Below are positions 1,854 through 64,000 of a stretch of 64,000 bases of DNA, piece after piece (position 1 is the stretch's first letter; each line of letters begins with the position of its first letter). The stretch lies in the NCBI RefSeq assembly GCF_053078305.1, contig NZ_CP166879.1; one strand, written 5' to 3'. Under the pieces are notes generated by a model, which did not search any database, was not told the DNA's origin, and saw nothing but the letters and a program-made list of their open reading frames with translations. A program made the position numbers and the translations under genes.

Positions 1854-1867
1854 AATATCACTCCGGC

Positions 1868-5180: not shown

Positions 5181-5202
5181 ACACCGACCTCAGAAATGCA
5201 AA

Positions 5203-5228
5203 CAGGAGCCTGATGGCTCCTGTTTTTC
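5203..5228 (+). terminator. Rho-independent terminator downstream of alaC
   Basis: Hairpin caggagcc-tgat-ggctcctg followed by T-run. Confidence 0.6.
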
Positions 5229-5244
5229 ATTGCACAGTTTGCTT

Positions 5245-5316
5245 TTAGATCATCAGGGCAAAAGTACCGGCCCAAACGATGACCATAAAAGAAATGCCCA
5301 TAAAGAAATATTTCAC
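5245..5316 (-). CDS. ypdK: Small membrane protein (23 aa, MKYFFMGISFMVIVWAGTFALMI)
   Basis: Short minus-strand ORF with GTG start, recognised by hand translation; below ORF-track size cutoff. Confidence 0.45.
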   Translation of the reverse strand: MKYFFMGISFMVIVWAGTFALMI

Positions 5317-5671
5317 TTTACATCTCTCCGCGTAATTGCTGTTACGCCTGAATGACTTCATTACACCTGATACAGTGAGTTGACACCGGGCAAAACGACC
5401 TTAAAAGTCCTGTATTTTACCGTGGGCATCACCCCAGAATTCTGAGCTAAACTGCTCGAGACGGCGCTAATGTACGCCTAAAACTGAAACGAGACAAGAG
5501 GCATTTTCTTATTTACTTTTAGTAACTTACAGGTGTCTCATATCGGCGACAGTTTAATTTCTGACGGTAATAATTAGATATTCAGCGAAGGAAAAAACCT
5601 TAAGAAAAAAGCCATAAAAACCATGAGGTTATTATGGCTTATGTGAGGAGGTAAAGAGTCAGAGCAGTTTG

Positions 5672-23497: not shown

Positions 23498-24493
23498 ATG
23501 GCTTCATTAAAGGATGTCGCACGCCTGGCGGGAGTGTCGATGATGACAGTCTCCCGGGTGATGCATAATGCAGAATCTGTGCGTCCTGCAACGCGTGACC
23601 GCGTATTGCAGGCAATCCAGACCCTGAATTATGTTCCTGATCTTTCCGCCCGTAAGATGCGCGCTCAAGGACGTAAGCCGTCGACTCTCGCCGTGCTGGC
23701 GCAGGACACTGCTACCACTCCTTTCTCTGTTGATATTCTGCTTGCCATTGAGCAAACCGCCAGCGAGTTCGGCTGGAATAGTTTTTTAATCAATATTTTT
23801 TCTGAAGATGACGCTGCCCGCGCGGCACGTCAGCTGCTTGCCCACCGTCCGGATGGCATTATCTATACTACAATGGGGCTGCGACATATCACGCTACCTG
23901 AGTCTCTGTATGGTGAAAATATTGTATTGGCGAACTGTGTGGCGGATGACCCAGCGTTACCCAGTTATATCCCTGATGATTACACTGCACAATATGAATC
24001 AACACAGCATTTGCTCGCGGCGGGCTATCGTCAACCGTTATGCTTCTGGCTACCGGAAAGTGCGTTGGCAACAGGGTATCGTCGGCAGGGATTTGAGCAG
24101 GCCTGGCGTGATGCTGGACGAGATCTGGCTGAGGTGAAACAATTTCACATGGCAACAGGTGATGATCACTACACCGATCTCGCAAGTTTACTCAATGACC
24201 ACTTCAAATCGGGCAAACCAGATTTTGATGTTCTGATATGTGGTAACGATCGCGCAGCCTTTGTGGCTTATCAGGTTCTCCTGGCTAAGGGGGTACGTAT
24301 CCCGCAGGATGTCGCCGTAATGGGCTTTGATAATCTGGTTGGCGTCGGGCATCTGTTTTTACCGCCGCTGACCACAATTCAGCTTCCACATGACATTATC
24401 GGGCGGGAAGCTGCATTGCATATTATTGAAGGTCGTGAAGGGGGAAGTGTGACGCGGATCCCTTGCCCGCTGTTGATCCGTTGTTCCACCTGA
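23498..24493 (+). CDS. cscR: Sucrose operon repressor (LacI family)
   Basis: ORF 23312-24493; true start ATG 23498 (MASLKDVARLAGVS... HTH); 331 aa. Confidence 0.85.
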   Translation: MASLKDVARLAGVSMMTVSRVMHNAESVRPATRDRVLQAIQTLNYVPDLSARKMRAQGRKPSTLAVLAQDTATTPFSVDILLAIEQTASEFGWNSFLINIFSEDDAARAARQLLAHRPDGIIYTTMGLRHITLPESLYGENIVLANCVADDPALPSYIPDDYTAQYESTQHLLAAGYRQPLCFWLPESALATGYRRQGFEQAWRDAGRDLAEVKQFHMATGDDHYTDLASLLNDHFKSGKPDFDVLICGNDRAAFVAYQVLLAKGVRIPQDVAVMGFDNLVGVGHLFLPPLTTIQLPHDIIGREAALHIIEGREGGSVTRIPCPLLIRCST

Positions 24494-24500
24494 TATTATG

Positions 24501-25934
24501 TTAACCCAGTTGCCAGAGTGCTCCATGTTGCACCACAGCCACTCCGTGGGAGGCATAAAGCGACAGTTCCCGTTCTTCTGGCTGCGGATAGATTCGACTA
24601 CTCATCACCGCTTCCCCGTCGTTAATAAATACTTCCACGGATGATGTATCGATAAATATCCTTAGGGCGAGCGTGTCACGCTGCGGGAGGGGAATACTAC
24701 GGTAGCCGTCTAAATTCTCGTGTGGGTAATACCGCCACAAAACAAGTCGCTCAGATTGGTTATCAATATACAGCCGCATTCCAATGCCGAGCTGTAATCC
24801 GTAATGTTCGGCATCACTGTTCTTCAGCGCCCACTGCAACTGAATCTCAACTGCTTGCGCGTTTTCCTGCAAAACATATTTATTGCTGATTGTGCGGGGA
24901 GAGATAGATTGATGCTGCTGGCGTAACGACTCAGCTTCGTGTACCGGGCGTTGTAGGAGTTTGCCATTGCTCTCTGATAGCTCGCGCGCCAGCGTCATGC
25001 AGCCTGCCCAGCCTTCACGTTTTGAGGGCATTGGCGATTCCCACATATCCATCCAGCCGATAACAATACGCCGACCATCCTTCGCTACAAAGCTTTGTGG
25101 TGCATAAAAGTCATGCCCGTTATCAAGTTCAGTAAAATGCCCGGATTGTGCAAAAAGTCGTCCTGGCGACCACATTCCGGGTATTACGCCACTTTGAAAG
25201 CGATTTCGGTAACTGTATCCCTCGGCATTCATTCCCTGCGGGGAAAACATCAGATAATGCTGATCGCCAAGGCTGAAAAAGTCCGGACATTCCCACATAT
25301 AGCTTTCACCCGCATCAGCGTGGGCCAGTACGCGATCGAAAGTCCATTCACGTAATGAACTGCCGCGATAAAGCAGGATCTGCCCCGTGTTGCCTGGGTC
25401 TTTCGCCCCGACTACCATCCACCATGTGTCGGCTTCACGCCACACTTTAGGATCGCGGAAGTGCATGATTCCTTCTGGTGGAGTGAGGATCACACCCTGT
25501 TTCTCGAAATGAATACCATCCCGACTGGTAGCCAGACATTGTACTTCGCGAATTGCATCGTCATTACCTGCACCATCGAGCCAGACGTGTCCGGTGTAGA
25601 TAAGTGAGAGGACACCATTGTCATCGACAGCACTACCTGAAAAACACCCGTCTTTGTCATTATCGTCTCCTGGCGCTAGCGCAATAGGCTCATGCTGCCA
25701 GTGGATCATATCGTCGCTGGTGGCATGTCCCCAGTGCATTGGCCCCCAGTGTTCGCTCATTGGGTGATGTTGATAAAACGCGTGATAACGATCGTTAAAC
25801 CAGATCAGGCCGTTTGGATCGTTCATCCACCCGGCAGGAGGCGCGAGGTGAAAATGGGGATAGAAAGTGTTACCCCGGTGCTCATGAAGTTTTGCTAGTG
25901 CGTTTTGCGCCGCATGCAATCGAGATTGCGTCAT
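24501..25934 (-). CDS. cscA: Sucrose-6-phosphate hydrolase / invertase (GH32)
   Basis: GH32 motifs NDPNG and WECPD; start at MTQSR. Confidence 0.85.
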   Translation of the reverse strand: MTQSRLHAAQNALAKLHEHRGNTFYPHFHLAPPAGWMNDPNGLIWFNDRYHAFYQHHPMSEHWGPMHWGHATSDDMIHWQHEPIALAPGDDNDKDGCFSGSAVDDNGVLSLIYTGHVWLDGAGNDDAIREVQCLATSRDGIHFEKQGVILTPPEGIMHFRDPKVWREADTWWMVVGAKDPGNTGQILLYRGSSLREWTFDRVLAHADAGESYMWECPDFFSLGDQHYLMFSPQGMNAEGYSYRNRFQSGVIPGMWSPGRLFAQSGHFTELDNGHDFYAPQSFVAKDGRRIVIGWMDMWESPMPSKREGWAGCMTLARELSESNGKLLQRPVHEAESLRQQHQSISPRTISNKYVLQENAQAVEIQLQWALKNSDAEHYGLQLGIGMRLYIDNQSERLVLWRYYPHENLDGYRSIPLPQRDTLALRIFIDTSSVEVFINDGEAVMSSRIYPQPEERELSLYASHGVAVVQHGALWQLG

Positions 25935-26149
25935 TTTAATCATCCTGGTTAAGCAAATTTGGTGAATTGTTAACGTTAACTTTTATAAAAATAAAGTCCC
26001 TTACTTTCATAAATGCGATGAATATCACAAATGTTAACGTTAACTATGACATTTTGTGATCGAATATGCATGTTTTAGTAAATCCATGACGATTTTGCGA
26101 AAAAGAGGTTTATCACTATGCGTAAGTCAGATGAATTTAAGGGAAAAAA

Positions 26150-27064
26150 ATGTCAGCCAAAGTATGGGTTTTAGGGGATGCGGTAGTAGATCTCTTGCCA
26201 GAATCAGACGGGCGCCTACTGCCTTGTCCTGGCGGCGCGCCAGCTAACGTTGCGGTGGGAATCGCCAGATTAGGCGGAATAAGTGGGTTTATAGGTCGGG
26301 TCGGTGATGATCCTTTTGGTGCGTTAATGCAAAGAACGCTGCTAACTGAGGGAGTCGATATCACGTATCTGAAGCAAGATGAATGGCACCGGACATCCAC
26401 GGTGCTTGTCGATCTGAACGATCAAGGGGAACGTTCATTTACGTTTATGGTCCGCCCCAGTGCCGATCTTTTTTTAGAGACGACAGACTTGCCCTGCTGG
26501 CGACATGGCGAATGGTTACATCTCTGTTCAATTGCGTTGTCTGCCGAGCCTTCGCGTACCAGCGCATTTACTGCGATGACTGCGATCCGGCATGCCGGAG
26601 GTTTTGTCAGCTTCGATCCCAATATTCGTGAAGATCTATGGCAAGACGAGCATTTGCTCCGCTTGTGTTTGCGGCAGGCGCTACAACTGGCGGATGTCGT
26701 CAAGCTCTCGGAAGAAGAATGGCGACTTATCAGTGGAAAAACACAGAACGATCGGAATATATGCGCCCTGGCAAAAGAGTATGAGATCGCCATGCTGTTG
26801 GTGACTAAAGGTGCAGAAGGGGTGGTGGTCTGTTATCGAGGACAAGTTCACCATTTTGCTGGAATGTCTGTGAATTGTGTCGATAGCACGGGGGCGGGAG
26901 ATGCGTTCGTTGCCGGGTTACTCACAGGTCTGTCCTCTACGGGATTATCTACAGATGAGAGAGGAATGCGACGAATTATCGATCTCGCTCAACGTTGCGG
27001 AGCGCTTGCAGTAACGGCGAAAGGGGCAATGACAGCGCTGCCATGTCGACAAGAACTGGAATAG
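26150..27064 (+). CDS. cscK: Fructokinase (PfkB family)
   Basis: 304-aa ORF with ribokinase-like GAGD motif. Confidence 0.85.
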   Translation: MSAKVWVLGDAVVDLLPESDGRLLPCPGGAPANVAVGIARLGGISGFIGRVGDDPFGALMQRTLLTEGVDITYLKQDEWHRTSTVLVDLNDQGERSFTFMVRPSADLFLETTDLPCWRHGEWLHLCSIALSAEPSRTSAFTAMTAIRHAGGFVSFDPNIREDLWQDEHLLRLCLRQALQLADVVKLSEEEWRLISGKTQNDRNICALAKEYEIAMLLVTKGAEGVVVCYRGQVHHFAGMSVNCVDSTGAGDAFVAGLLTGLSSTGLSTDERGMRRIIDLAQRCGALAVTAKGAMTALPCRQELE

Positions 27065-27135
27065 TGAGAAGTAAACGGCGAAGTCGCTCTTATCTCTAAA
27101 TAGGACGTGAATTTTTTAACGACAGGCAGGTAATT

Positions 27136-28383
27136 ATGGCACTGAATATCCCATTCAGAAATGCGTACTATCGTTTTGCATCCAGTTACTCATTTCTCTT
27201 TTTTATTTCCTGGTCGCTGTGGTGGTCGTTATACGCTATTTGGCTGAAAGGACATCTAGGGTTGACAGGGACGGAATTAGGTACACTTTATTCGGTCAAC
27301 CAGTTTACCAGCATTCTATTTATGATGTTCTACGGCATCGTTCAGGATAAACTCGGTCTGAAGAAACCGCTCATCTGGTGTATGAGTTTTATCCTGATCT
27401 TGACCGGACCGTTTATGATTTACGTTTATGAACCGTTACTGCAAAGCAATTTTTCTGTAGGTTTAATTCTGGGGGCGCTCTTTTTTGGCCTGGGGTATCT
27501 GGCGGGATGCGGTTTGCTTGACAGCTTCACCGAAAAAATGGCGCGAAATTTTCATTTCGAATATGGAACAGCGCGCGCCTGGGGATCTTTTGGCTATGCT
27601 ATTGGCGCGTTCTTTGCCGGCATATTTTTTAGTATCAGTCCCCATATTAACTTCTGGTTGGTCTCGCTATTTGGCGCTGTATTTATGATGATCAACATGT
27701 GTTTTAAAGATAAGGATCACCAGTGCGTAGCGGCGGATGCGGGAGGGGTAAAAAAAGAGGATTTTATCGCAGTTTTCAAGGATCGAAACTTCTGGGTTTT
27801 CGTCATATTTATTGTTGGGACGTGGTCTTTCTATAACATTTTTGATCAACAACTTTTTCCTGTCTTTTATGCAGGTTTATTCGAATCACACGATGTAGGA
27901 ACGCGCCTGTATGGTTATCTCAACTCATTCCAGGTGGTACTCGAAGCGCTGTGCATGGCGATTATTCCGTTCTTTGTGAATCGGGTAGGGCCAAAAAATG
28001 CATTACTTATCGGTGTTGTGATTATGGCGTTGCGTATCCTTTCCTGCGCGCTGTTCGTTAACCCCTGGATTATTTCATTAGTGAAGCTGTTACATGCCAT
28101 TGAGGTTCCACTTTATGTCATATCCGTCTTCAAATACAGCGTGGCAAACTTTGATAAGCGCCTGTCGTCGACGATCTTTCTGATTGGTTTTCAAATTGCC
28201 AGTTCGCTTGGGATTGTGCTGCTTTCAACGCCGACTGGGATACTCTTTGACCACGCAGGCTACCAGACAGTTTTCTTCGCAATTTCGGGTATTGTCTGCC
28301 TGATGTTGCTATTTGGCATTTTCTTCCTGAGTAAAAAACGCGAGCAAATAGTTATGGAAACGCCTGTACCTTCAGCAATATAG
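27136..28383 (+). CDS. cscB: Sucrose:H+ symporter (MFS, LacY-like)
   Basis: 415-aa 12-TM ORF. Confidence 0.85.
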   Translation: MALNIPFRNAYYRFASSYSFLFFISWSLWWSLYAIWLKGHLGLTGTELGTLYSVNQFTSILFMMFYGIVQDKLGLKKPLIWCMSFILILTGPFMIYVYEPLLQSNFSVGLILGALFFGLGYLAGCGLLDSFTEKMARNFHFEYGTARAWGSFGYAIGAFFAGIFFSISPHINFWLVSLFGAVFMMINMCFKDKDHQCVAADAGGVKKEDFIAVFKDRNFWVFVIFIVGTWSFYNIFDQQLFPVFYAGLFESHDVGTRLYGYLNSFQVVLEALCMAIIPFFVNRVGPKNALLIGVVIMALRILSCALFVNPWIISLVKLLHAIEVPLYVISVFKYSVANFDKRLSSTIFLIGFQIASSLGIVLLSTPTGILFDHAGYQTVFFAISGIVCLMLLFGIFFLSKKREQIVMETPVPSAI

Positions 28384-28825
28384 ACGTAAACTTTTTCCGG
28401 TTGTTGTCGATATCTCCATATCCTTCAACCGGAAAATAATAATACTAAAATGCTTAGCCCTGCTAATAATCGCCTAATCCAAACACCTCATTCATGTTCT
28501 GGTACAGTCGCTCAAATGTACTCCGGATACACGGTTCGCTGATTTCCAGGACATTGTCGTCATTCAGCGACCTGTCGCGTGTATCACGGGCCTGCGAATT
28601 CATCAAGGAATGCATTGCGGAGTGAAGTATCGAGTCACGCCATATTTCGCTATCAGGATTCTGTGTGATGGTTACATCGCCCGGCCCAAGGCTGTTTAGT
28701 CATCAGCGCTTTCTGACAGTGCTGAGATTTCAACCTGTTGCAGTAAAAATGAGTAGATATAGGGCAAGTGTGCTGCCAAACCCATCGTTTACGGGATGAA
28801 GGTAGATTTGGTTTGAAGGGTATCT

Positions 28826-28842
28826 GGTGTCCCCTGCAGACA
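28826..28842 (-). repeat. att-core-like fragment matching the 3' end of tRNA-Arg (argW)
   Basis: ctggtgtcccctgcaga is the reverse complement of the recalled argW 3' end CTGCAGGGGACACCA; no tRNA body follows. Confidence 0.4.
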
Positions 28843-28912
28843 TCTACTTGAAGCGGCAGGGGATTGATTGGAATGGTGTTTTTTAGATGTGAAAAATATT
28901 TTACCCGCTATT

Positions 28913-29113
28913 TTACCCATTGGCGCGGCTTAAGAGCTTATTTTTGAATTCACAATGGTCACGATATAACCATCTTGCTCGCCCGTGGATAACTTTGGCT
29001 TTAGGTAGGTCTCCGGACTTAATCCGGTCATAGATGAAGGTCTTACCGAAGCCAGTATCAGCCATGATGAATTTCAAATCAACCAGTGAATCAGGTTGTA
29101 GTTCGTGTTGCAT
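28913..29113 (-). CDS. Excisionase-like / AlpA-family DNA-binding protein
   Basis: 66-aa ORF with AlpA/Xis-like pattern (DTGFGKTFIYDRIKSGDLP); adjacent to att remnant. Confidence 0.5.
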   Translation of the reverse strand: MQHELQPDSLVDLKFIMADTGFGKTFIYDRIKSGDLPKAKVIHGRARWLYRDHCEFKNKLLSRANG

Positions 29114-29217
29114 GAGTGCTATCTCCGAATAGGGAATCGAACCTGCAAATCAGGCAATAAAAAAACCGCATTGATGCGGCGATGGTAGGTCTGGATATCT
29201 TGATAAATGAAAATGCC

Positions 29218-29496
29218 TCATCGAGTGTGAGGCGGTGTGATTCCATGGTTACCTCTGCTTTTTGAACGCATGTCACGTAACTTCTTAATGTGTTCTGCCG
29301 TTTCGATCTCTTCTGCTATCCGATCTGCATCAGCTTTATTCACAGGTTCAAAGTCATGATTAAAGCGGAACATGCTGGCGATACATGTTCTGCCTTTTCG
29401 GATGTAGTGAACTTTGTTGTGGTTAGAACGCAGGATTTTGCAGGGAGTGCCGTGGTGGTCGACGTACCAGGTGTTAGGCAAAATGATTCTGAACAT
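29218..29496 (-). CDS. Hypothetical phage protein
   Basis: 92-aa ORF in early-left region. Confidence 0.35.
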   Translation of the reverse strand: MFRIILPNTWYVDHHGTPCKILRSNHNKVHYIRKGRTCIASMFRFNHDFEPVNKADADRIAEEIETAEHIKKLRDMRSKSRGNHGITPPHTR

Positions 29497-29543
29497 TTTT
29501 ACACCTCAGTTGGACGATGTTGAAATTTGCTCCTTTGAGGTCA

Positions 29544-29762
29544 TCACAATCCCCATTGTTTGTTCTTAAGTTCGATCTCCTCCTGGCAACTTGCACAAGT
29601 CCGACAACCCTGAACGGCTAGGCGTCTTCGCTTATCTATGGGATCGCCACACTCACAACAATGAGTGGCAGATATAGCCTGGTGGTTCAGGCGGCGCATT
29701 TTTATTGCTGTGTTGCGCTGTAATTCTTCAATTTCTGATGCTGAATCAATGATGTCTGCCAT
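29544..29762 (-). CDS. TraR/DksA-family C4 zinc-finger protein
   Basis: CxxC...CxxC motif (CCECGDPI...CRTCASC) in 72-aa ORF. Confidence 0.55.
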   Translation of the reverse strand: MADIIDSASEIEELQRNTAIKMRRLNHQAISATHCCECGDPIDKRRRLAVQGCRTCASCQEEIELKNKQWGL

Positions 29763-29860
29763 CTTTCATTAATCCCTGAATTGTTGGTTAATACGCTTGA
29801 GGGTGAATGCGAATAATAAAAAAGGAGCCTGTAGCTCCATGAAGATTTTGCTTTTCATGT

Positions 29861-30142
29861 TCACCGTTCCTTAAAGACGCCGTTTAACATACCGATTGCC
29901 AGACTTAAGTGAGTCGGTGTGAATCCCATCAGCGTTACCGTTTCGCGGTGCTTCTTCAGTACGCTACGGCAAATGTCATCGACGTTTTTATCCGGAAACT
30001 GCTGTCTGGCTTTTTTGATTTCAGAATTAGCCTGACGGGCAATACTGCGAAGGGCGTTTTCTTGCTGAGGTGTCATTGAACAAGTCCCATGTCGGCAAGC
30101 ATAAGCACACAGAATATGAAGCCCGCTGCCAGAAAAATGCAT
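29861..30142 (-). CDS. Hypothetical phage protein
   Basis: 93-aa ORF. Confidence 0.3.
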   Translation of the reverse strand: MHFSGSGLHILCAYACRHGTCSMTPQQENALRSIARQANSEIKKARQQFPDKNVDDICRSVLKKHRETVTLMGFTPTHLSLAIGMLNGVFKER

Positions 30143-54971: not shown

Positions 54972-56377
54972 AACTGGCACCGAACGTAAAACGATTACCG
55001 AAAGATAAATACACCGAAGCGGTTATTTTTGCGGGTATTGATGCTCACTCATTCGCAGAGCATTACATCATTGCACAGGCCAAAAAAGCAGGCGATCCAG
55101 TCCCTCCCGTTTATCTGGGGCGTTATCAGTTAAGCGAACTGGATAACCTCCAGATTGTTGATGATGGGCGATACAGGGCGACGGTGATACGCGCCGGAAA
55201 TATTGAAGAGCCGCAGCTGTTAACCATCGCCACGAAACTGGCGAGCGCCGGAGTCCAGGAGGCGCGGCTACTTTCTGAAAATTTCGAATTGCTGGAGGAA
55301 TGGAGCGACCAGCTTCCACGGCTTAGGGAGGCATGGGAACGCGGGGAAAGCCTGGTCATGAAAAAAATTCCCCAGCGAAAAACCACGCTACCGATGAGCG
55401 TTGGATCTACCGGATACGACACACAGCTTGATTACGTGGTAAAGGGGATTATTCCGGCATCGTCGCTTTGCAGCATATACGGGGCGAGCGGTTCCTATAA
55501 ATCATTCCTTGCCGGATCGTGGGCGTGTCACGTTTCCACGGGCCGCCAGTGGGGAGGCCGCAGGGTGGCGCATGGCGCTGTTCTCTATGTGGTTGGTGAA
55601 GGCGGTATCGGCGTTCCGCGTCGTGTAAAAGCCTGGGAGGTTGTGCACGGTGAGCAGGTGAAAAATCTGTATCTGGTAAACCGTCCCATCTTTCCGGCTG
55701 TCCCGCTTGATGTTGATGAACTGGTTATTGCTGCCAGTCAGGTGGAGAGGGAAACGGGTAAACCTGTTCGCATGATTATTCTGGACACGCTGGCGCGTTG
55801 CTTTGGCGGCAATGATGAAAATGACTCCCGCGACATGGGGGCATTTATCCGTGGTTGTGACGAGCTTAAACGGCGCACAGGGGCTACGGTGCTGGTGGTT
55901 CACCATTCCGGCAAGGATGAAACAAAGGGGGCGCGTGGTTCCAGTGCATTTCGTGCATCACTGGACGCTGAATACCGGATACGCAGGGAGGACGCAGGAA
56001 GCGAAGCGCTGGTTATCTCATGCACCAAAATGAAGGACGCGGAGGAACTCAAAGAGGCTGCCTATGATTTGCGGGTGGTGGAGCTTTTTACCGACGCTGA
56101 CGGGGAGTTAATTACGTCGCTGGTGGTGGTGGATAAGCCGCGCCCTCCCGTTGAACTGGAGCGCATCGAGGAGGCAGGCAACAAGACGGAAAACCATACC
56201 GCGCTATGGGGGTGCATCCGTTCACGCACACAGAACGGCGACAAGTGCACGATCCCGCTGTTACGTGACGATATGAAAAAGCTGGGGTATGACACAAAAC
56301 ACCTTAAACGATGGTTAGCCAAACTGGAAAAAGACGACGTGATCTACATTGACGGTGATGATGTAGGACCACTGTAA
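54968..56377 (+). CDS. Replication ATPase (RecA/DnaB-like P-loop, putative initiator/helicase)
   Basis: 469-aa ORF with Walker A GASGSYKS and Walker B IILDTLAR; followed directly by iterons. Confidence 0.65.
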   Translation: MKLAPNVKRLPKDKYTEAVIFAGIDAHSFAEHYIIAQAKKAGDPVPPVYLGRYQLSELDNLQIVDDGRYRATVIRAGNIEEPQLLTIATKLASAGVQEARLLSENFELLEEWSDQLPRLREAWERGESLVMKKIPQRKTTLPMSVGSTGYDTQLDYVVKGIIPASSLCSIYGASGSYKSFLAGSWACHVSTGRQWGGRRVAHGAVLYVVGEGGIGVPRRVKAWEVVHGEQVKNLYLVNRPIFPAVPLDVDELVIAASQVERETGKPVRMIILDTLARCFGGNDENDSRDMGAFIRGCDELKRRTGATVLVVHHSGKDETKGARGSSAFRASLDAEYRIRREDAGSEALVISCTKMKDAEELKEAAYDLRVVELFTDADGELITSLVVVDKPRPPVELERIEEAGNKTENHTALWGCIRSRTQNGDKCTIPLLRDDMKKLGYDTKHLKRWLAKLEKDDVIYIDGDDVGPL

Positions 56378-56580
56378 AAAGTGGGCATTAAAAGTGGGAA
56401 AGGTGGGCGATTTAACGTAATTTTAACAAAATCACCCACTTTCCCACGTGTATATATCCCAAAAAGTGGGCACTAAAAAAATACCTATGAAACAAGATGA
56501 TATAAATCCCAAACTTCCCACGTTGGACGAAGTGGGAAAACGTAAAAAGTGGGCGAAAAAAGTGGGTAGAGGTGGGCAAA
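56378..56580. repeat. Iteron-type replication origin of the satellite
   Basis: At least eight copies of AAGTGGG(C/A)A in both orientations within 200 bp. Confidence 0.6.
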
Positions 56581-56831
56581 TGACTCAAAAACACAGAGAC
56601 AGAACAGAGCCAAAATATAAAGCGTTAGACATGACAGAGCACGCTTTAAAGGTGGCAATCAGGGTAATAGACCGCCACACGCGGGAAGGATACGCGAAGG
56701 AACATCCCGACCTGATAAGCGCATTCATGACCACAGCGGCGGCAAACTTTGCCACGCTGACAGAACGGGAGATAGCCGAAGCGGAACAGGTAACAACCAT
56801 CAACGTTAAAACCGGAGAGGTGGAATCATGA
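56580..56831 (+). CDS. Hypothetical protein
   Basis: ORF 56448-56831 overlaps the iterons; likely start ATG 56580. Confidence 0.35.
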   Translation: MTQKHRDRTEPKYKALDMTEHALKVAIRVIDRHTREGYAKEHPDLISAFMTTAAANFATLTEREIAEAEQVTTINVKTGEVES

Positions 56832-57238
56832 CAGCACAGATAGCCGCTTACGGGCGGCTGGTGGACGACCCGCAGGTAAAACAAACCAGCAAGGGCACAC
56901 CGATGACGCTGGCGCGTATGGCGGTATCTCTGCCATGCAGCCAGGCACAGGACGGGCAGGCTACGTTATGGCTATCAGTGATGGCATTTGGTAAGCAGGC
57001 CGACTTCCTGGCTAAACATCAAAAAGGCGATGTTGCCAGCGTATCCGGCACGATGCAGGTAAGCCAGTGGACCAGACAGAACGGGGAAACGCGGCAGGGT
57101 TATCAGGTTATTGCAGACAGTGTAATCAGTGCCCGTGCTGCCCGTCCTGGCGGGAGCAGACGTACAACCACAGGCACACAGGGTAATCAGCCACCAGCGG
57201 GAGGCGATGACCCTTACGGTGACGGTATTCCGTTCTGA
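56828..57238 (+). CDS. ssb: Single-stranded DNA-binding protein
   Basis: 136-aa OB-fold-like protein with Gly/Pro-rich tail ending DDPYGDGIPF. Confidence 0.7.
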   Translation: MTAQIAAYGRLVDDPQVKQTSKGTPMTLARMAVSLPCSQAQDGQATLWLSVMAFGKQADFLAKHQKGDVASVSGTMQVSQWTRQNGETRQGYQVIADSVISARAARPGGSRRTTTGTQGNQPPAGGDDPYGDGIPF

Positions 57239-57248
57239 GGGGGTGACG

Positions 57249-57521
57249 ATGGTACATGACCGCATAGCGGAGGAACTCGAGGCAAAAGGCTTTTACCGGA
57301 GGGCGGCGGCGCGATGGGGTGAAGTTATGCAGCTGGTGGAGACAGACAAGGAACGGCATCAGGTTACGATGCGACGGCTGGAATGTTCCAGGAAGGCACA
57401 GAGGCCACCGGAGCCGCCGGATAACTTCGGAGACCTGAAAAAAGCAGTAGATCGCACTTATGCCGAAATGGGTATGGATGGTGTAAGCGATGAAATATGG
57501 CGTAATTACCCAGACAGCTAA
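57249..57521 (+). CDS. Hypothetical protein, possibly PerC-like activator
   Basis: 90-aa ORF (ATG 57249); N-terminal AEELEAKGFYRRAAARW resembles PerC family from memory. Confidence 0.35.
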   Translation: MVHDRIAEELEAKGFYRRAAARWGEVMQLVETDKERHQVTMRRLECSRKAQRPPEPPDNFGDLKKAVDRTYAEMGMDGVSDEIWRNYPDS

Positions 57522-57527
57522 TCAACA

Positions 57528-57549
57528 GCCGGAGAAATCCGGCTTTTTT
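57528..57549 (+). terminator. Rho-independent terminator
   Basis: gccgg-agaaat-ccggc hairpin plus TTTTTT; identical hairpin at 59802. Confidence 0.6.
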
Positions 57550-57562
57550 GTACCCAAAAAAA

Positions 57563-57598
57563 GCCCGATAAGTACAGGAGGCATCTTATCGGGCTTTT
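57563..57598 (+). terminator. Second tandem terminator hairpin
   Basis: gcccgataag ... cttatcgggc stem followed by TTTT. Confidence 0.5.
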
Positions 57599-57760
57599 GC
57601 ATATGAGGTTTTTTTGGTGCACTGACACACATGATCGGGGTAATCATTTCATAATTTGCAACACAACTCAACATCATTGCACAAAATGCAATCCTGATTA
57701 TAATCAGAGCTGGATGAACATCCAGTTCTGATTTTTTAAGTCAAAGAGGAATTTCTTACT

Positions 57761-57967
57761 ATGGCTGAAGAGAAAAAAGGCGGTGTTTCGGTGTACATAA
57801 GCCCCGAAATCGTGGAGGTGCTCAAGCAGCGCCACAAAAAAAACTATGAGGCTGGCGTAGCGGCTGGACTGGATCCGCTGATGACGCCGGAGCCGTCGAT
57901 AGGTTCACTTGTGCGCTCTTATTTACTTGCGGCGCTTGGGATGCATAAAAATTATGGTGGTGAATAA
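57761..57967 (+). CDS. Hypothetical protein
   Basis: 68-aa ORF with RBS agagga, immediately upstream of capsid-like gene. Confidence 0.4.
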   Translation: MAEEKKGGVSVYISPEIVEVLKQRHKKNYEAGVAAGLDPLMTPEPSIGSLVRSYLLAALGMHKNYGGE

Positions 57968-59022
57968 TGACAGTAAAAGCAATGGCACTTACAACTAACC
58001 AGCTTTTCGCGTACCTGAATCGCGGGGATATTGCAGAATTTAAATTCAGTCCGCTGTTTACCACGCTGTTTTTCCCGAACGTGGCGACCTTCAACACCCA
58101 GAACATCATGCTGGACACCCTGGACATTGAAGAGGTTACGATGTCAGCGTTCTGTTCGCCTATGGTGGGTAGTCAGGTCCAGCGCGATAAAGGGTACGAA
58201 ACCAGCACGATTAAACCAGGCTACATGAAACCCAAACACGAAATCGATCCAACAAAAACCATCATGCGCATGGCTGGAGAAGATCCGGCACAGCTTAACG
58301 ACCCTACCTACCGCCGTATGCGCCTGATTACTGGCAACATGCGCCGCCAGATAAACGCCATTAAAGCGCGCGTGGAATGGCTGGCGGTGAATGCGATAAC
58401 GACCGGAAAAAACATCATTGAGGGCGAAGGCATAGAACGCTATGAAATCGACTGGAAAATACCGGAAAACTGCATCATAGAGCAGGCCAAGGGTAAAAAA
58501 TGGTCCGAGCATGATAAAGATATTTACGATCCAATCTATGACATCGAACTATACGCAGATCAGGCAGGTTGCCCCGCCAACGTCATGATTATGGGCGCTG
58601 AGGTATGGCGCACGTTACGCAGCTTTAAAAAATTCCGCGAACTGTACGATCTTTCCCGTGGTTCAGAATCCGCCGCAGAACTGGCCTGTAAAAACCTGGG
58701 TGAAGTAGTGAGCTTTAAAGGCTATCTGGGCGATATTGCCCTTATCGTCTATTCCGGCAAATACACTGACAGCGACGGTACCGAAAAATATTTCCTTGAG
58801 CCTGATTTGCTGGTCCTGGGTAACACCAACAATAAAGGGCTGGTGGCCTATGGTGCGATTATGGATCAGGAAGCGGTAAGAACGGGCGCAACGCAAAACA
58901 TGTTCTACCCGAAAAACTGGATTGAAGACGGCGATCCGGCGATTGAGTACGTTCAGACGCACAGCGCACCGCAGCCGGTACCGGCAGATATTCGCAAATT
59001 TGTTACCGTCAAAATTGCTTAA
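57967..59022 (+). CDS. Major capsid protein homologue (lambda gpE-like)
   Basis: 351-aa protein sharing conserved blocks with lambda gpE (FxFxPLF, GYxKPKHE, DPxYRRxR, YDPxxDIExYA, VSxKGxxGDxAxxVYSG, YPKNW, GDPA, SAP); similarity judged from recalled gpE sequence. Confidence 0.65.
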   Translation: MTVKAMALTTNQLFAYLNRGDIAEFKFSPLFTTLFFPNVATFNTQNIMLDTLDIEEVTMSAFCSPMVGSQVQRDKGYETSTIKPGYMKPKHEIDPTKTIMRMAGEDPAQLNDPTYRRMRLITGNMRRQINAIKARVEWLAVNAITTGKNIIEGEGIERYEIDWKIPENCIIEQAKGKKWSEHDKDIYDPIYDIELYADQAGCPANVMIMGAEVWRTLRSFKKFRELYDLSRGSESAAELACKNLGEVVSFKGYLGDIALIVYSGKYTDSDGTEKYFLEPDLLVLGNTNNKGLVAYGAIMDQEAVRTGATQNMFYPKNWIEDGDPAIEYVQTHSAPQPVPADIRKFVTVKIA

Positions 59023-59033
59023 CGGGGGATTCT

Positions 59034-59369
59034 ATGGACACTCCATACATTGAGTTATTTGCAGGCAGTCAGCAGGTATCCACGACGCTGGTACATTTTG
59101 CCGCTGATGCTGGCGTTATTCAGGAATTTACCCCGCTGATGCTGGCGGACAATGGCGAGTTTAAGCCGTGGGATGGTCAGGAATCTGGCAAGGCTGTTTA
59201 TCTGACCTCGTACCCCGTGGACACGTCAAAGCAGAAATCAGCACAGTGTTACAAGACGGGGATATTTAATATCGCCGCCGTAAACTGGCCTGAGAGCGCC
59301 GACACTGACGCGAAAAAATGCGCCGCCTTTGCGGGTTCTGGCGTATCCGTTCAGCCGCTGGCGCGATAA
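59034..59369 (+). CDS. Head decoration protein homologue (lambda gpD-like)
   Basis: 111-aa protein aligning with gpD (TPLML, WDG, YKTGxF, WPE, AFAG), also with the bona fide D N-terminus at 63772. Confidence 0.6.
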   Translation: MDTPYIELFAGSQQVSTTLVHFAADAGVIQEFTPLMLADNGEFKPWDGQESGKAVYLTSYPVDTSKQKSAQCYKTGIFNIAAVNWPESADTDAKKCAAFAGSGVSVQPLAR

Positions 59370-59381
59370 GCAGGGGAAACG

Positions 59382-59795
59382 ATGGCAACGAATGAAAGCA
59401 TCATGGCGCTACCGCTGGCGAGTAAATTTAAAGCAGAAGCGCGGGCAATGGCTGACAGAGGTTTATCAACCTACGAGGCCGTATATCAACTCAACAAACT
59501 GGAAGAGCAGGACAAGCCGCGCGCTGATGCGATTATGGCGCTTCATGAACATAACGACTATCAGCCGCTGTTACGTGCAATGGCAAACGTGCCATGTATT
59601 AGCGTCGATAATGCTCGTGAAATCCTGAACATGACCATAGAGCAGGAGCGCCCAAAGGTTGCGCCGGAGCTTACCGCAGCCTTTGAAAACTTTATGGACA
59701 TGCACAGCCCGAAAGCCGTATCACCCGGCATGGCATACGACGGCAGAAACCAGGGCGATGAAGGCGACGTCGATCGCATACTGAAAACCATCTGA
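59382..59795 (+). CDS. Hypothetical protein
   Basis: 137-aa ORF between decoration-like gene and terminator. Confidence 0.4.
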   Translation: MATNESIMALPLASKFKAEARAMADRGLSTYEAVYQLNKLEEQDKPRADAIMALHEHNDYQPLLRAMANVPCISVDNAREILNMTIEQERPKVAPELTAAFENFMDMHSPKAVSPGMAYDGRNQGDEGDVDRILKTI

Positions 59796-59801
59796 CATAA
59801 G

Positions 59802-59824
59802 GCCGGAGAAATCCGGCTTTTTTT
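59802..59824 (+). terminator. Rho-independent terminator (duplicate of 57528 hairpin)
   Basis: gccgg-agaaat-ccggc plus TTTTTTT. Confidence 0.6.
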
Positions 59825-59856
59825 ACGGGTCCTTTCCGGCATATGGACCCGTTACG

Positions 59857-59868
59857 GGGCGGCGACCT
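59857..59868 (+). other. Satellite cos-like site (cosN GGGCGGCGACCT) in direct orientation
   Basis: About 60 bp (59825-59890) nearly identical to prophage cos 46155-46220, diverging in the cosB-proximal part. Confidence 0.7.
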
Positions 59869-60001
59869 CGCGGTTTTTCGCTATTTATGAGCTTTTTTCG
59901 GGTGCTGGTGGTGGTTTTGTTTTTCGCTCTATCTCTATGAATAAAAAGGGAAAGATAAAACCAATACACCAACCTGAAACATTACTTAAGTGGGGATATT
60001 G

Positions 60002-60544
60002 ATGAAATCGCACCTGATGAACAAAAAAAACATGGCGCAAAGCTGCCGTGTAAGTGCGACAGCGTTCGACAAGTGGGGAGTGACTCCCGTTGAACGTAAA
60101 GGACGCGAGGCTTTTTACGATGTTGCCAGCGTGATAGACAATCGGGTAAGCAATGCAATTAACCAGGTTACAAACGACAAAGGCGAGATTGATGATGATG
60201 AACTCTTACGAGTCAGGATCAGATTACTGACCGCCCAGGCTGAGGCGCAGGAACTTAAAAACGAGCGCGATCGCGGTGACGTAATTGATACTGAGTTTTG
60301 CCTGTACGCGCTTTCAAAGCTGGCGAGTCAGATTTCTTCAATCATGGACAGTTTGCCGCTTACCATGCAAAGGCGCTTCCCGCAGATTACTCCCGCTATG
60401 CTGGATGGGCTTAAAAGGGAAGTGGTTAAAGCCTGTAATGCCAGTGCCACAGTTGCCGACAACCTCCCGAAGATACTGGCTGATTACCTGATGGAAACTA
60501 CCGGAGACGTACCGGAGAAGTTGCTACAGAAGAAAGGCGAGTAA
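60002..60544 (+). CDS. Nu1-like small terminase / packaging-redirection protein
   Basis: ORF 59990-60544 (GTG); C-terminal region resembles lambda Nu1 (LTxAQAxAQELKNxRD, LSxxAxxIxSIxDxxPLxxQRRFP); N-terminal DNA-binding region differs. Confidence 0.6.
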   Translation: MKSHLMNKKNMAQSCRVSATAFDKWGVTPVERKGREAFYDVASVIDNRVSNAINQVTNDKGEIDDDELLRVRIRLLTAQAEAQELKNERDRGDVIDTEFCLYALSKLASQISSIMDSLPLTMQRRFPQITPAMLDGLKREVVKACNASATVADNLPKILADYLMETTGDVPEKLLQKKGE

Positions 60545-60724
60545 CAGACGCGCAATTATTGAACAAAAGTAAGGCCCGACATGAAATCACCCAAAAATGC
60601 CTTTTTCATGCGTTTGTATGTCTGACCTTTTACGGTTTCGATATTATAAAAAACAAATAGTTACGCTCGAGAGGTACCGACACGCATTTTTCAGGAAAAT
60701 TTTCATAAACAGATAAAAACCGCG

Positions 60725-60736
60725 AGGTCGCCGCCC
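60725..60736 (-). other. Second cos-like site in inverted orientation
   Basis: aggtcgccgccc is the reverse complement of cosN; flanks on the minus strand resemble cosQ/cosB. Confidence 0.6.
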
Positions 60737-60800
60737 CGTAACGGGCCATAATTCCAGGAAGGACCCGACGACACCAGGCTATCAGAACGATGAGGGCACA

Positions 60801-61082
60801 ATGACAGAAGCCGAACTACTGGGATTAATCCGCTACGTTACCGGAATCAGCCAGCAGCATGACGAACAGGCCACGCAGCCGGACAGCGTGACCGCTGAAA
60901 ATTATGCGCGTGTTGTTGCTGAGGTGATGCGCCGTGATGGTATCCAGCTTAATGATGCAGATATGCGCGACATACGGATCCGCGTTCTTGAAATGCTGGC
61001 CTACCGTCGCCGCGTGCAGACGTACAGGGAAAAAGCAAAAATAACGTACCAGTGGAAGAAGCCGGAGCGATTACGGCGGTAA
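60801..61082 (+). CDS. Hypothetical protein
   Basis: 93-aa ORF. Confidence 0.35.
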   Translation: MTEAELLGLIRYVTGISQQHDEQATQPDSVTAENYARVVAEVMRRDGIQLNDADMRDIRIRVLEMLAYRRRVQTYREKAKITYQWKKPERLRR

Positions 61083-61127
61083 CTTGCTGATATTCCCGAT
61101 AACGCAAAATTGCGCTCTGTCCTAACC

Positions 61128-61259
61128 CGTTGATATTTTCGGGAACAGCCAACGGCTGAGGCCGGAACAACGATTATCTTTCAGATAGTCAGAGCTACGA
61201 AATTTTCGTAGTTTAATTACTCGCCAGTTTATCGTTAACTCGTTGATATTTTCGGTAAC
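61128..61259. repeat. Two 19-bp direct repeats flanking a perfect 17-bp palindrome
   Basis: cgttgatattttcgggaac at 61128-61146 and cgttgatattttcggtaac at 61241-61259; palindrome ctacgaaattttcgtag at 61195-61211. Confidence 0.8.
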
Positions 61260-61587
61260 CTCAATTTGAGGAGATCGGAAACATAACCCTTCACATTCTG
61301 AATGGTTATAATGACCACTCAGACCATCAAGGCAACCATAACGAACATCGTTACGGTTGGAGCTTTTACCCCACTGGGGGGAAGGTGCACATCTGGATCA
61401 TCATTACCGTGATCAAGGGTATGTAAAACCCACCAGCCTGATTAACTGTTAACCGGAAAAAAGCCAGGTAGCCAATCTCGATATGGGGATCCCCATATCG
61501 ACATTAACGCCCCCTAGAACTGCGCATATCTGCATATAAAAACATCCACCAGCTTTATGACGGATGCCGCTCATCTGATAAATAATC

Positions 61588-61610
61588 GTGTATTGCAATG
61601 TGTATTGCGA
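61588..61610. repeat. Two direct copies of GTGTATTGC(A/G)A at the right end (putative integrase arm sites)
   Basis: Same 11-mer as the three copies at 49980-50032, same orientation. Confidence 0.6.
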
Positions 61611-61688
61611 CTCCTTTAAACGATAGGTTTGAGCATTCGTAATGTACTGTTTTTAAATTTTATTTTTTCCTGTCTTTTCATAAAAGCC

Positions 61689-62462
61689 ATGTATGCCGCC
61701 ACCATTGAGAGTGAGCTGGATACGCAGTCAGCGATGGATTTTATTCTGGGCGCGAACAGTCAGGAGCAGCGGGAAAGGCTGACCGGCTGGATTGGTGAAA
61801 TTGCCGCGTATTACGCCGCAGCACCGGTCCGTCTGGGAGGCGCAAAAGTGCCGCACCTGATGCCGGGGGACTCACTGAACCTGCAGACGGCTCAGGACAC
61901 GGATAACGGCTACTCCGTGTTTGAGCAGTCACTGTTGCGGTATATCGCTGCCGGGCTGGGTGTCTCGTATGAGCAGCTTTCCCGGAATTACGCCCAGATG
62001 AGCTACTCCACGGCACGGGCCAGTGCGAACGAGTCGTGGGCGTACTTTATGGGGCGGCGAAAATTCGTCGCATCCCGTCAGGCGAGCCAGATGTTTCTGT
62101 GCTGGCTGGAAGAGGCCATCGCTCGCCGCGTGGTGACGTTACCTTCAAAAGCACGCTTCAGTTTTCAGGAAGCCCGAAGTGCCTGGGGGAACTGCGACTG
62201 GATAGGCTCCGGTCGTATGGCCATCGATGGTCTGAAAGAAGTACAGGAAGCGGTGATGCTGATAGAAGCCGGACTGAGTACCTACGAGAAAGAGTGCGCA
62301 AAACGCGGTGACGACTATCAGGAAATTTTTGCCCAGCAGGTCCGTGAAACGATGGAGCGCCGTGCAGCCGGTCTTAAACCGCCCGCCTGGGCGGCTGCGG
62401 CATTTGAATCCGGGCTGCGACAATCAACAGAGGAGGAGAAGAGTGACAGCAGAGCTGCGTAA
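61689..62462 (+). pseudogene. Portal protein B, 3' portion (codons 277-533)
   Basis: From MYAATIESELDTQSAMDFILG... to the stop; joins the 49850 half in frame to give 533 aa; ORF-track N-terminal extension is satellite sequence. Confidence 0.85.
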
Positions 62463-63762
62463 TCTCCCGCATATTGCCAGCATGGCCTTTAATGAGCCGC
62501 TGATGCTTGAACCCGCCTATGCGCGGGTTTTCTTTTGTGCGCTTGCAGGCCAGCTTGGGATCAGCCGCCTGACGGATGCGGTGTCCGGCGACAGCCTGAC
62601 TGCCCAGGAGGCACTCGCGACGCTGGCATTATCCGGTGATGATGACGGACCACGACAGGCCCGCAGTTATCAGGTCATGAACGGCATCGCCGTGCTGCCG
62701 GTGTCCGGCACGCTGGTCAGCCGGACGCGGGCGCTGCAGCCGTACTCGGGGATGACCGGTTACAACGGCATTATCGCCCGTCTGCAACAGGCTGCCAGCG
62801 ATCCGATGGTGGACGGCATTCTGCTCGATATGGACACGCCCGGCGGGATGGTGGCGGGGGCATTTGACTGCGCTGACATCATCGCCCGTGTGCGTGACAT
62901 AAAACCGGTATGGGCGCTTGCCAACGACATGAACTGCAGTGCAGGTCAGTTGCTTGCCAGTGCCGCCTCCCGGCGTCTGGTCACGCAGACCGCCCGGACA
63001 GGCTCCATCGGCGTCATGATGGCTCACAGTAATTACGGTGCTGCGCTGGAGAAACAGGGTGTGGAAATCACGCTGATTTACAGCGGCAGCCATAAGGTGG
63101 ATGGCAACCCCTACAGCCATCTTCCGGATGACGTCCGGGAGACACTGCAGTCCCGGATGGACGCAACCCGCCAGATGTTTGCGCAGAAGGTGTCGGCATA
63201 TACCGGCCTGTCCGTGCAGGCTGTGCTGGATACCGAGGCTGCAGTGTACAGCGGTCAGGAGGCCATTGATGCCGGACTGGCTGATGAACTTGTTAACAGC
63301 ACCGATGCGATCACCGTCATGCGTGATGCACTGGATGCACGTAAATCCCGTCTCTCAGGAGGGCGAATGACCAAAGAGACTCAATCAACAACTGTTTCAG
63401 CCACTGCTTCGCAGGCTGACGTTACTGACGTGGTGCCAGCGACGGAGGGCGAGAACGCCAGCGCGGCGCAGCCGGACGTGAACGCGCAGATCACCGCAGC
63501 GGTTGCGGCAGAAAACAGCCGCATTATGGGGATCCTCAACTGTGAGGAGGCTCACGGACGCGAAGAACAGGCACGCGTGCTGGCAGAAACCCCCGGTATG
63601 ACCGTGAAAACGGCCCGCCGCATTCTGGCCGCAGCACCACAGAGTGCACAGGCGCGCAGTGACACTGCGCTGGATCGTCTGATGCAGGGGGCACCGGCAC
63701 CGCTGGCTGCAGGTAACCCGGCATCTGATGCCGTTAACGATTTGCTGAACACACCAGTGTAA
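62443..63762 (+). CDS. Minor capsid protein C (head protease/scaffold)
   Basis: ORF 62308-63762; gpC N-terminus MTAELRNLPHIAS from GTG at 62443, overlapping B 3' end. Confidence 0.85.
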   Translation: MTAELRNLPHIASMAFNEPLMLEPAYARVFFCALAGQLGISRLTDAVSGDSLTAQEALATLALSGDDDGPRQARSYQVMNGIAVLPVSGTLVSRTRALQPYSGMTGYNGIIARLQQAASDPMVDGILLDMDTPGGMVAGAFDCADIIARVRDIKPVWALANDMNCSAGQLLASAASRRLVTQTARTGSIGVMMAHSNYGAALEKQGVEITLIYSGSHKVDGNPYSHLPDDVRETLQSRMDATRQMFAQKVSAYTGLSVQAVLDTEAAVYSGQEAIDAGLADELVNSTDAITVMRDALDARKSRLSGGRMTKETQSTTVSATASQADVTDVVPATEGENASAAQPDVNAQITAAVAAENSRIMGILNCEEAHGREEQARVLAETPGMTVKTARRILAAAPQSAQARSDTALDRLMQGAPAPLAAGNPASDAVNDLLNTPV

Positions 63763-63771
63763 GGGATGTTT

Positions 63772-64000
63772 ATGACGAGCAAAGAAACCTTTACCCATTA
63801 CCAGCCGCAGGGCAACAGTGACCCGGCTCATACCGCAACCGCGCCCGGCGGATTGAGTGCGAAAGCGCCTGCAATGACCCCGCTGATGCTGGACACCTCC
63901 AGCCGTAAGCTGGTTGCGTGGGATGGCACCACCGACGGTGCTGCCGTTGGCATTCTTGCGGTTGCTGCTGACCAGACCAGCACCACGCTGACGTTCTACA
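63772..64000 (+). CDS. Head decoration protein D (5' partial at window end)
   Basis: [27 protein letters not shown]... matches lambda gpD. Confidence 0.85.

Follow-up and report, generated by a model that had tools for sequence, protein, structure and literature searches.

A lambda-family capsid, decoration and small terminase gene module in a putative phage-inducible chromosomal island inserted in the portal gene of an Escherichia coli prophage

A window of 64,000 nucleotides of Escherichia coli DNA (contig NZ_CP166879.1, assembly GCF_053078305.1) was analyzed around positions 57,761 to 60,544, where a preliminary description made from the sequence alone had placed a satellite that is nested in a lambda-type prophage and encodes diverged homologues of lambda capsid protein E, decoration protein D and small terminase subunit (TerS) Nu1. 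With a probability of about 0.8, the region is read here as the late (packaging and morphogenesis) zone of a phage-inducible chromosomal island (PICI) of the EcCICFT073 family, embedded in the portal gene B of its helper, a lambda-type E. coli prophage. The finding is already known: the element is of a common, annotated and studied type and lies at a published site, and capsid genes in Gram-negative PICIs have been reported (PMC6092414). Positions are those of the window, which is the whole stretch analyzed, and features lie on the plus strand unless marked otherwise.

From left to right, the late zone contains a 68-amino-acid open reading frame (ORF), the genes here named E′, D′ and Nu3′, a cos site (cos1), terS′, a second and inverted cos site (cos2), and a 93-amino-acid ORF. 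E′ (57967..59022, +; 351 amino acids) was 43% identical to lambda gpE over 343 amino acids, end to end (E 5e-94), and matched phrog_29, major head protein, at 1.4e-107 and Pfam Phage_cap_E (PF03864) at 2.7e-50 across residues 26-349. Against PDB, 351 of its 351 residues were aligned with entry 3BQW, titled ‘putative capsid protein of prophage’ (E 2.9e-232), and the lambda gpE chains of a cryo-electron microscopy structure (7VI9) were matched at 7.7e-82. Entry 3BQW is the crystal structure of EcCICFT073 c1499, which is 96.6% identical to E′. On these matches, E′ is assigned to the lambda gpE family (Phage_cap_E, HK97 fold). D′ (59034..59369, +; 111 amino acids) was 37% identical to gpD over 76 amino acids (E 7e-14), matched phrog_49 at 4.2e-27, Pfam HDPD (PF02924) at 1.2e-17 and the solved decoration proteins 1TD0 and 1C5E at 6e-13 to 1e-9, and was 97.3% identical to EcCICFT073 c1500; it is classed by homology as a member of the lambda gpD family (HDPD).

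The next gene, Nu3′ (59382..59795, +; 137 amino acids), encodes a protein predicted to be remotely related to the Nu3/gp6 scaffolding protein, in its C-terminal domain. It matched phrog_1999 at 6.7e-62, the same PHROG that was matched by lambda Nu3 and N15 gp6 (2.7e-26 and 1.3e-24, respectively). Profile-profile comparison with hhalign gave a probability of 82% (E 1e-5), and a scaffold-like bridge protein of 195 amino acids (P0041) was aligned with Nu3 at 2e-16 and with Nu3′ at 2e-10. The link surfaced only through the PHROG profiles and the bridging sequence: local BLAST against lambda gpC/Nu3 and searches of Pfam and PDB returned no match. Direct BLASTP against the helper gpC, N15 gp6 and a 127-amino-acid protein of a second island lineage (see below) was also blank, and the relationship to Nu3 is therefore considered remote. 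The family appears narrow, as a word-indexed protein search and a search of 1.84 billion representatives returned close E. coli relatives for nearly all matches. In RefSeq these relatives are called ‘head-tail connector protein’ or ‘hypothetical’, and we infer that the ‘head-tail (pre)connector’ names in the databases stem from the same similarity to Nu3. Together, E′, D′ and Nu3′ supply the island with a predicted coat protein, a cement protein and a scaffold domain.

The gene between the two cos sites, terS′ (60002..60544, +), encodes a Nu1-type small terminase homologue of 180 amino acids and occupies the slot that is held by rppA in EcCICFT073. In pairwise alignment with the helper's own Nu1, 14 kb upstream, TerS′ was 36% identical over 179 amino acids (E 1e-34); it matched phrog_57 at 1.3e-51 and Pfam Phage_Nu1 (PF07471) at 2.2e-22 over residues 33-149, the first 32 residues being missed because the N-terminal region has diverged. 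The homology of all three ORFs to gpE, gpD and Nu1 was thereby borne out by sequence comparison and by significant Pfam profile matches for each, with PDB matches for E′ and D′. The proposal that TerS′ resembles the C-terminal part of Nu1 and has a different N-terminal DNA-binding region stood in its first half only, since the DNA-binding region is also homologous, at 38% identity to lambda Nu1 and 60% to N15 gp1. The middle region (central self-association) was 42-47% identical to the TerS proteins of lambda, 21 and N15. In the AlphaFold model, the N-terminal part was composed of strand, helix, helix, strand, strand and helix, with a predicted local distance difference test score (pLDDT) of 76-86. 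TerS′ is by homology a member of the Nu1 family, not part of a complete terminase, as no gene for a large terminase subunit (TerL) adjoins it in the island. Nor is it by these comparisons an Rpp protein, having 180 amino acids, a full Nu1 C-terminal half and no Rpp similarity: BLAST of TerS′ against RppA gave no match, and when TerS′ was compared with PDB sequences, the RppC entries 6HLK and 6HN7 were not recovered even at E <= 1. Nu1 (1J9I) was likewise missing from the matches.

Among PICI TerS proteins, the final ~40-55 residues (TerS′ 126-180, window 60377-60541) came in two alleles about 66% identical, the remainder being about 95% identical (compared with islands L006 and L007). This suggests that the C-terminal segment may be a swappable partner-specificity segment. 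In lambda Nu1, TerL is bound by the same last ~40-amino-acid region in which the PICI alleles vary (PMC9026076).

Exact cosN matches were found at three places in the window, one in the helper and two in the island, compared with 0.14 expected by chance. The helper cosN (GGGCGGCGACCT, 46187..46198, +) is an exact match and is followed by a lambda-type cosB. In the island, cos1 (59826..60001, +) contains a cosQ-like region, cosN at 59857-59868 and a short cosB in which the R3 position is taken by GGTGGTGGTTTT; cos1 lies 145 bp upstream of terS′. The inverted cos2 (60545..60775, -) contains cosN at 60725-60736 and a phage-21-type cosB with R3, R2 and R1. The cores of the two sites form a 72-nt inverted repeat (59826-59897, +; 60696-60767, -) that brackets terS′. 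Both island cosN sequences are identical to that of the helper, and both island cosB regions are unlike the lambda-type cosB of the helper. N15 has a similar motif, GGTTGTTGTTT, at a distance from cosN equal to that of GGTGGTGGTTTT in cos1. Four islands with the N15-like TerS DNA-binding domain have this cosB conserved in cos1. In one island, where the N-terminal domain of TerS is lambda/21-like, a cosB with three R elements stands in its place. Such co-variation is the strongest argument obtained here for a reading of cos1 by TerS′. For its part, cos2 is collinear with the annotated cos of phage 21, with R1 identical at 16/16 positions and R3 and R2 nearly so, and in the helper prophage of CFT073 both cos and TerS are exactly those of 21. 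Three distinct cos specificities are thus present within the window: lambda (46187), phage-21-type and N15-like. With cos2 taken as the only island cos, cosB and the DNA-binding domain of TerS had seemed to vary independently; the difficulty was resolved by cos1.

The island with the R-element cosB is that of E. coli TUM9803, where the TerS (L007 2725-3309) is a mosaic in which a lambda/21-like N-terminal DNA-binding domain is joined at an AQELKN motif to a PICI-type C-terminal half. Its three cosB R elements read ‘AGATCC’, and the same R elements were found in cos2 of the RM14516 island (L002 13680-13934).

The nesting of the satellite in the helper prophage, also claimed at the outset, was confirmed from the flanking DNA. 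The satellite body (49856..61682, +) sits between two lambda-matching blocks, of which the left (46187-49855) was 98.4% identical to lambda 1-3670 and the right (61683-64000) 99.4% identical to lambda 3658-5975. With foreign DNA between two such flanks, the 11.84-kb element must split gene B, and the helper portal gene is interrupted at nt 823-835. Its 5′ part (49021..49855, +) corresponds to lambda B nt 1-835 at 98.8% identity and contains the attL core (49843-49855), while the attR core (61683-61695) begins the 3′ part (61683..62462, +), which corresponds to lambda B nt 823-1602 at 98.3%. Including one att core, the satellite repeat unit is 11,840 bp. When the island was excised in silico by joining 49021-49855 to 61696-62462, gene B was restored and encoded a 533-amino-acid portal protein identical to gpB at 529/533 positions. 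The island genes are co-oriented with the helper late genes. On the left, the helper has a Nu1 of lambda specificity (46376..46921, +; 99.4% identical to lambda Nu1) and gpA (TerL; 46896..48821, +), an ORF inside the 98.4% lambda match and the sole large terminase at the disposal of the island. On the right, the helper decoration gene D starts at 63772 (63772..64000, +) and is cut by the window end; it matches lambda, in which D starts at 5747. The helper copies of Nu1 and D are hence where the preliminary description had put them.

The att cores are imperfect, AAGGCGATTTATG on the left and AAAGCCATGTATG on the right, compared with AAGGCGATGTATG for lambda attB, so that crossover is confined to a very short identity near (A)T.TATG. 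Helper-embedded PICIs and the integration site B:Phage_portal_2:241 have been published (PMC10111431), and for this site the supplement of that paper has E. coli islands of 11 kb with the block ‘aaggcgat’; attL in the window has the same sequence. The junction between portal and integrase genes was found at >=98% identity in 63 complete E. coli genomes, for example GZEC065. Positions 24000-30000 are chromosomal flank with csc sucrose-utilisation genes and are 98% identical to E. coli genomes; the left end of the prophage lies near 28-30 kb.

The absence of a portal or large terminase gene from the satellite was upheld by two kinds of search. When lambda A, W, B, C, FI, FII, Z and U were compared with the island by tblastn, zero matches were obtained, and only Nu1, D and E matched. 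PHROG scans of the other island ORFs yielded no further packaging or head genes, so that portal, protease (gpC), connectors (W, FII) and TerL are absent. No lysis family turned up in PHROG scans of 18 chosen island ORFs, although no query was aimed at lysis genes, and HNH was not among the PHROG scan results, although no HNH-specific query was made. As an island with neither portal nor TerL must borrow both, plus tails, the proposal that these are taken from the helper was retained. The features of Gram-negative PICIs were found in the element: int followed by alpA, an own replication module, a length within ~10-15 kb, cos sites, no tail genes and no complete head and packaging set.

The closest studied relative is EcCICFT073 of E. 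coli CFT073, a model for Gram-negative PICIs (Fillol-Salom 2018, 2019), with which the gene order is shared from the single-stranded DNA-binding protein (SSB) gene to the right end. In addition to the capsid and decoration identities given above, the 137-amino-acid protein is 90%, the 93-amino-acid protein 82% and SSB 97% identical, the range being 82-97% with the PerC-like protein included. Like the island, EcCICFT073 has two inverted cosN sites, reported in 2018 (PMC6092414), around a packaging-specificity gene. There the gene is rppA, encoding 144 amino acids and lacking the TerL-binding C-terminus, whereas the island has a full-length Nu1-type TerS in the same slot with no BLAST similarity. 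The two differ also in the replication gene (a primase in EcCICFT073, a RepA-type helicase in the island) and in location, EcCICFT073 being at chromosomal roxA-phoQ with a different integrase and the island at the helper portal gene.

Other satellites share parts of this anatomy. Rpp proteins occupy the same genomic slot as TerS′, have a Nu1-type N-terminal winged helix, as is predicted for TerS′, and are presumed to make a similar switch from helper to island cos. Unlike them, TerS′ has the whole Nu1 architecture, including central and C-terminal regions, and therefore could replace the helper TerS instead of having to bind it. The TerS(S) of Staphylococcus aureus pathogenicity islands (SaPIs) of the pac type is, like TerS′, a satellite small terminase homologue, one that works with the helper TerL, but it belongs to another TerS family and mechanism (headful pac, compared with cos in the island); blocking of the helper TerS by Ppi is also required in SaPIs, and no Ppi equivalent was identified in the island. 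Capsid-forming PICIs (cf-PICIs), such as EcCIEDL933, share with the island the PICI backbone (int, alpA, rep) and head genes. They have a complete set of capsid, protease, portal, connectors, HNH, TerS and TerL, whereas portal, protease, connectors and TerL are missing from the island.

Distribution was examined in 5426 complete E. coli genomes. The E′/D′ pair was present at >=90% DNA identity in 597 (about 11%), with one more at 80-90%. A terS′-like gene was found in 771, including Nissle 1917 and O157:H7 strains, and rppA-type sequences in 97. The whole island gave no match at >=80% coverage, so the genome set has every module of the island but not this particular combination. In RefSeq, these genes are correctly annotated in hundreds of genomes, their products being called ‘major capsid protein’, ‘head decoration protein’ and ‘terminase small subunit’, in GZEC065 alongside the helper's own copies. 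Among 50,697 phage records, the closest capsid was at most 47% and the closest TerS at most 46% (N15) identical. A second satellite E′/D′ pair is 55%/53% identical to the pair in the window, and both satellite pairs are about 42%/38% identical to those of lambda and N15, compared with 90%/69% between lambda and N15. The ratio of nonsynonymous to synonymous substitution rates (dN/dS), calculated pairwise between islands, was 0.07-0.15 for E′, 0.03-0.30 for D′ and 0.10-0.26 for terS′. The divergence from phages and the purifying selection therefore point to long-resident, selected satellite genes and not to recent captures from helpers. The second pair belongs to a lineage made up of clpS-site islands and the GZEC065 portal-site island (L005, L006 and L010), in which the capsid protein has 346 and the decoration protein 113 amino acids and a 127-amino-acid AlpA-like helix-turn-helix protein (phrog_2790) takes the place of Nu3′. 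This lineage is able to sit behind the same integrase and at the same portal site as the island in the window.

The remainder of the island is a PICI backbone. Directly behind int (50051-51292, +; phrog_1, 1.6e-58) follows the co-oriented alpA (51294-51551, +; phrog_2790, 1.9e-15). A Bro-N protein gene was found in the ORF scan of the island (51606-52184, +), and the own replication module contains genes for a RepA-type helicase/primase-related protein (54968-56377, +) and SSB (56828-57238, +). The island also encodes a PerC-like regulator; when the late-zone proteins were compared with NCBIfam, no family was found apart from one sub-threshold ANR/PerC match. In the Bro zone, Rfam placed isrK (66 bits) and a C4 antisense RNA (77.6 bits) side by side (53558-53634 and 53656-53743, +); these are P4-type immunity RNAs and have been described for PICIs. 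The same four zones (integration, Bro with C4/isrK RNAs, replication, late) are found in helper-embedded PICIs (HE-PICIs; Tommasini, Mageeney and Williams 2023), which, like the island, lie inside and are co-oriented with a lambda-cognate late gene. The HE-PICI prototype 11capE has its own capsid gene, as does the island, but lies in gene E and has no terS, whereas the island lies in gene B and has terS′.

The 68-amino-acid ORF (57761..57967, +) is the first gene of the late zone; it matched phrog_3255 at 8.5e-46 and was 68% identical to its CFT073 counterpart, and a PDB search with it gave no match (a Pfam scan was not run). Downstream of cos2, the 93-amino-acid ORF (60801..61082, +) matched phrog_1561 at 1.5e-55, gave no match in a PDB search and had counterparts at 82-86% identity in the islands of CFT073 and RM14516. 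It is kept in every related island examined, with a higher dN/dS of 0.13-0.48. The capsid operon is closely preceded by two terminator-like hairpins (57527-57544 and 57702-57733), and the hairpin GCCGGAGAAATCCGGC with its T-run reappears after the 137-amino-acid gene, before cos1 (about 59800-59822). Near the right end of the island, a 45-nt direct repeat of 73% identity (61123-61167 / 61236-61280) and a 16-nt perfect-type palindrome (61474-61505) were noted; these may be arm sites for the integrase or AlpA, or the ‘doubled DNA motif’ of HE-PICIs.

From these features, the following course of events is proposed. On induction of the helper, late transcription from the helper late operon would read into the co-oriented island, as suggested by Tommasini et al. 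(PMC10111431). The island would excise, with restoration of gene B as obtained in silico, and would replicate by its own replicon. The predicted N15-like winged-helix domain of TerS′ would then bind the short N15-like cosB of cos1 and bring the helper gpA to the island cosN. Direct recruitment of gpA by the C-terminal region of TerS′ is slightly favored; recruitment by mixed oligomers of TerS′ and helper Nu1 is a less probable route, by analogy with Rpp proteins, for which redirection by hetero-oligomers with the helper TerS has been reported (PMC6739421, PMC9026076). Island concatemers would fill heads made by the helper. Four island units amount to 47,360 bp, or 97.6% of the lambda genome, which fits a lambda-sized head and is consistent with the phage-sized DNA of EcCICFT073. 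With helpers of 21 specificity, cos2 would allow the island to be packaged without redirection. Redirection of the helper terminase by TerS′, as the preliminary description had it, fits the anatomy, in that the island has its own cos, with a cosB unlike the helper's, immediately 5′ of terS′ in the rppA slot, and is rated plausible. E′, D′ and Nu3′ would be accessory, helper-dependent shell components and not a proven island capsid. They are treated in this way because near-identical orthologues are dispensable for transfer and for interference with the helpers tested.

Several observations weigh against this proposal. Over its C-terminal 41 residues, TerS′ shares only 32% identity with the TerS of lambda, 21 or N15, and these residues are followed by a 14-amino-acid tail, so the fit to the helper's lambda-type TerL is uncertain. 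The AlphaFold model of TerS′ as a whole had a pLDDT of 71, and Foldseek returned only non-significant matches to MerR-type winged helices (E >= 0.15). In the literature searched, no experiment was found in which a Nu1-type PICI TerS bound cos1 or lambda gpA, and two TerS-encoding E. coli PICIs (IHE3034 and 18098) moved poorly with resident prophages (PMC6092414). Finally, a dispensable accessory role does not account for the strong purifying selection that acts on E′, D′ and Nu3′.

That selection counts in favor of another reading, in which E′, D′ and Nu3′ assemble satellite-specific shells, possibly smaller, on the helper portal, TerS′ steers island DNA into them, and portal, protease, TerL and tails are borrowed. 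A coherent kit of coat, decoration and scaffold domain adjoins cos and terS′, E′ aligns with gpE from end to end, and E′ and D′ diverge together as pairs. Satellite homologues of the helper major capsid protein redirect head size elsewhere, in SaPIbov5 and probably PmCI172 (PMC6893505). For the SaPIbov5 protein, Ccm, redirection of capsid size is demonstrable, whereas no phenotype has been detected for the E′ orthologue of EcCICFT073. Deletion of c1499 or c1500, 97% identical orthologues of E′ and D′, left transfer and lambda interference of EcCICFT073 unchanged, and EcCICFT073 DNA packaged with lambda was all phage-sized (PMC6092414). When the late-zone genes were expressed alone, only c1503 (rppA) blocked lambda (PMC6739421). 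Review articles give the same account of these results. The second island lineage has E′ and D′ but an AlpA-like regulator instead of Nu3′, and some TerS′-bearing islands are without any capsid genes. In those negative experiments, both marked EcCICFT073 derivatives (c1499::cat and c1501::tetA; PMC6092414, Table 1) carried the marker inside the shell module; c1501 is, by gene numbering, probably the Nu3′ gene. It is conceivable, though improbable, that the published null result is an artefact of markers that disrupted the kit and of the few helpers tested, and that island shell proteins gain a head start since the portal is made only after the island has left gene B. If so, a satellite with its own coat, cement and scaffold and with stolen portal, protease, motor and tail would stand between classical PICIs and cf-PICIs. 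Given the deletion and packaging results, we consider satellite-specific shells an unlikely outcome, and the original suggestion that the element builds or remodels its own capsid is left unsupported.

A still less probable role for E′ and D′ is that of interference factors, dominant-negative coat and decoration subunits that would poison helper head assembly or compete with it. PICIs characteristically interfere with their helpers, and co-assembly could be imagined at 43% identity to gpE, but islands deleted for c1499 or c1500 still blocked lambda, and plasmid expression of late-zone genes other than c1503 left lambda plaques unreduced. The view that E′, D′ and TerS′ come from a recent capture of helper late genes or are copies in decay, picked up by recombination owing to the position of the island in the late operon and kept as a backup with no function of their own, draws on the proposals that PICIs capture late genes and that a copy captured near the integration site may back up the interrupted helper gene (PMC10111431), and was rejected as very improbable on grounds of identity and selection, as the proteins share only 36-43% identity with their helper or lambda counterparts and at most 47% with any sequenced phage, the interrupted gene is the portal, of which the island has no copy, the same genes are found at >=90% DNA identity in 597 genomes and at chromosomal sites far from any prophage, and dN/dS is about 0.1.

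The preferred reading, an EcCICFT073-family PICI with helper-dependent accessory shell genes in a helper portal gene, adds little to what has been described: reports of capsid, decoration and terS genes from PICIs of E. coli date from 2018, and the helper-embedded arrangement and its site were published in 2023. The homology of Nu3′ to scaffold proteins, the pair of cos sites with dual specificity and the alternation of TerS and Rpp in one slot are small refinements, not discoveries. Two questions are raised. The first is why a satellite coat and decoration pair is maintained under strong purifying selection in about 11% of complete E. coli genomes despite the absence of a detected phenotype. 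The second is whether a full-length Nu1-type TerS, the type found in 771 genomes compared with 97 for the rppA type, replaces the helper small terminase or cooperates with it. The window contains a natural, defined pair of helper and satellite on which both questions are testable.

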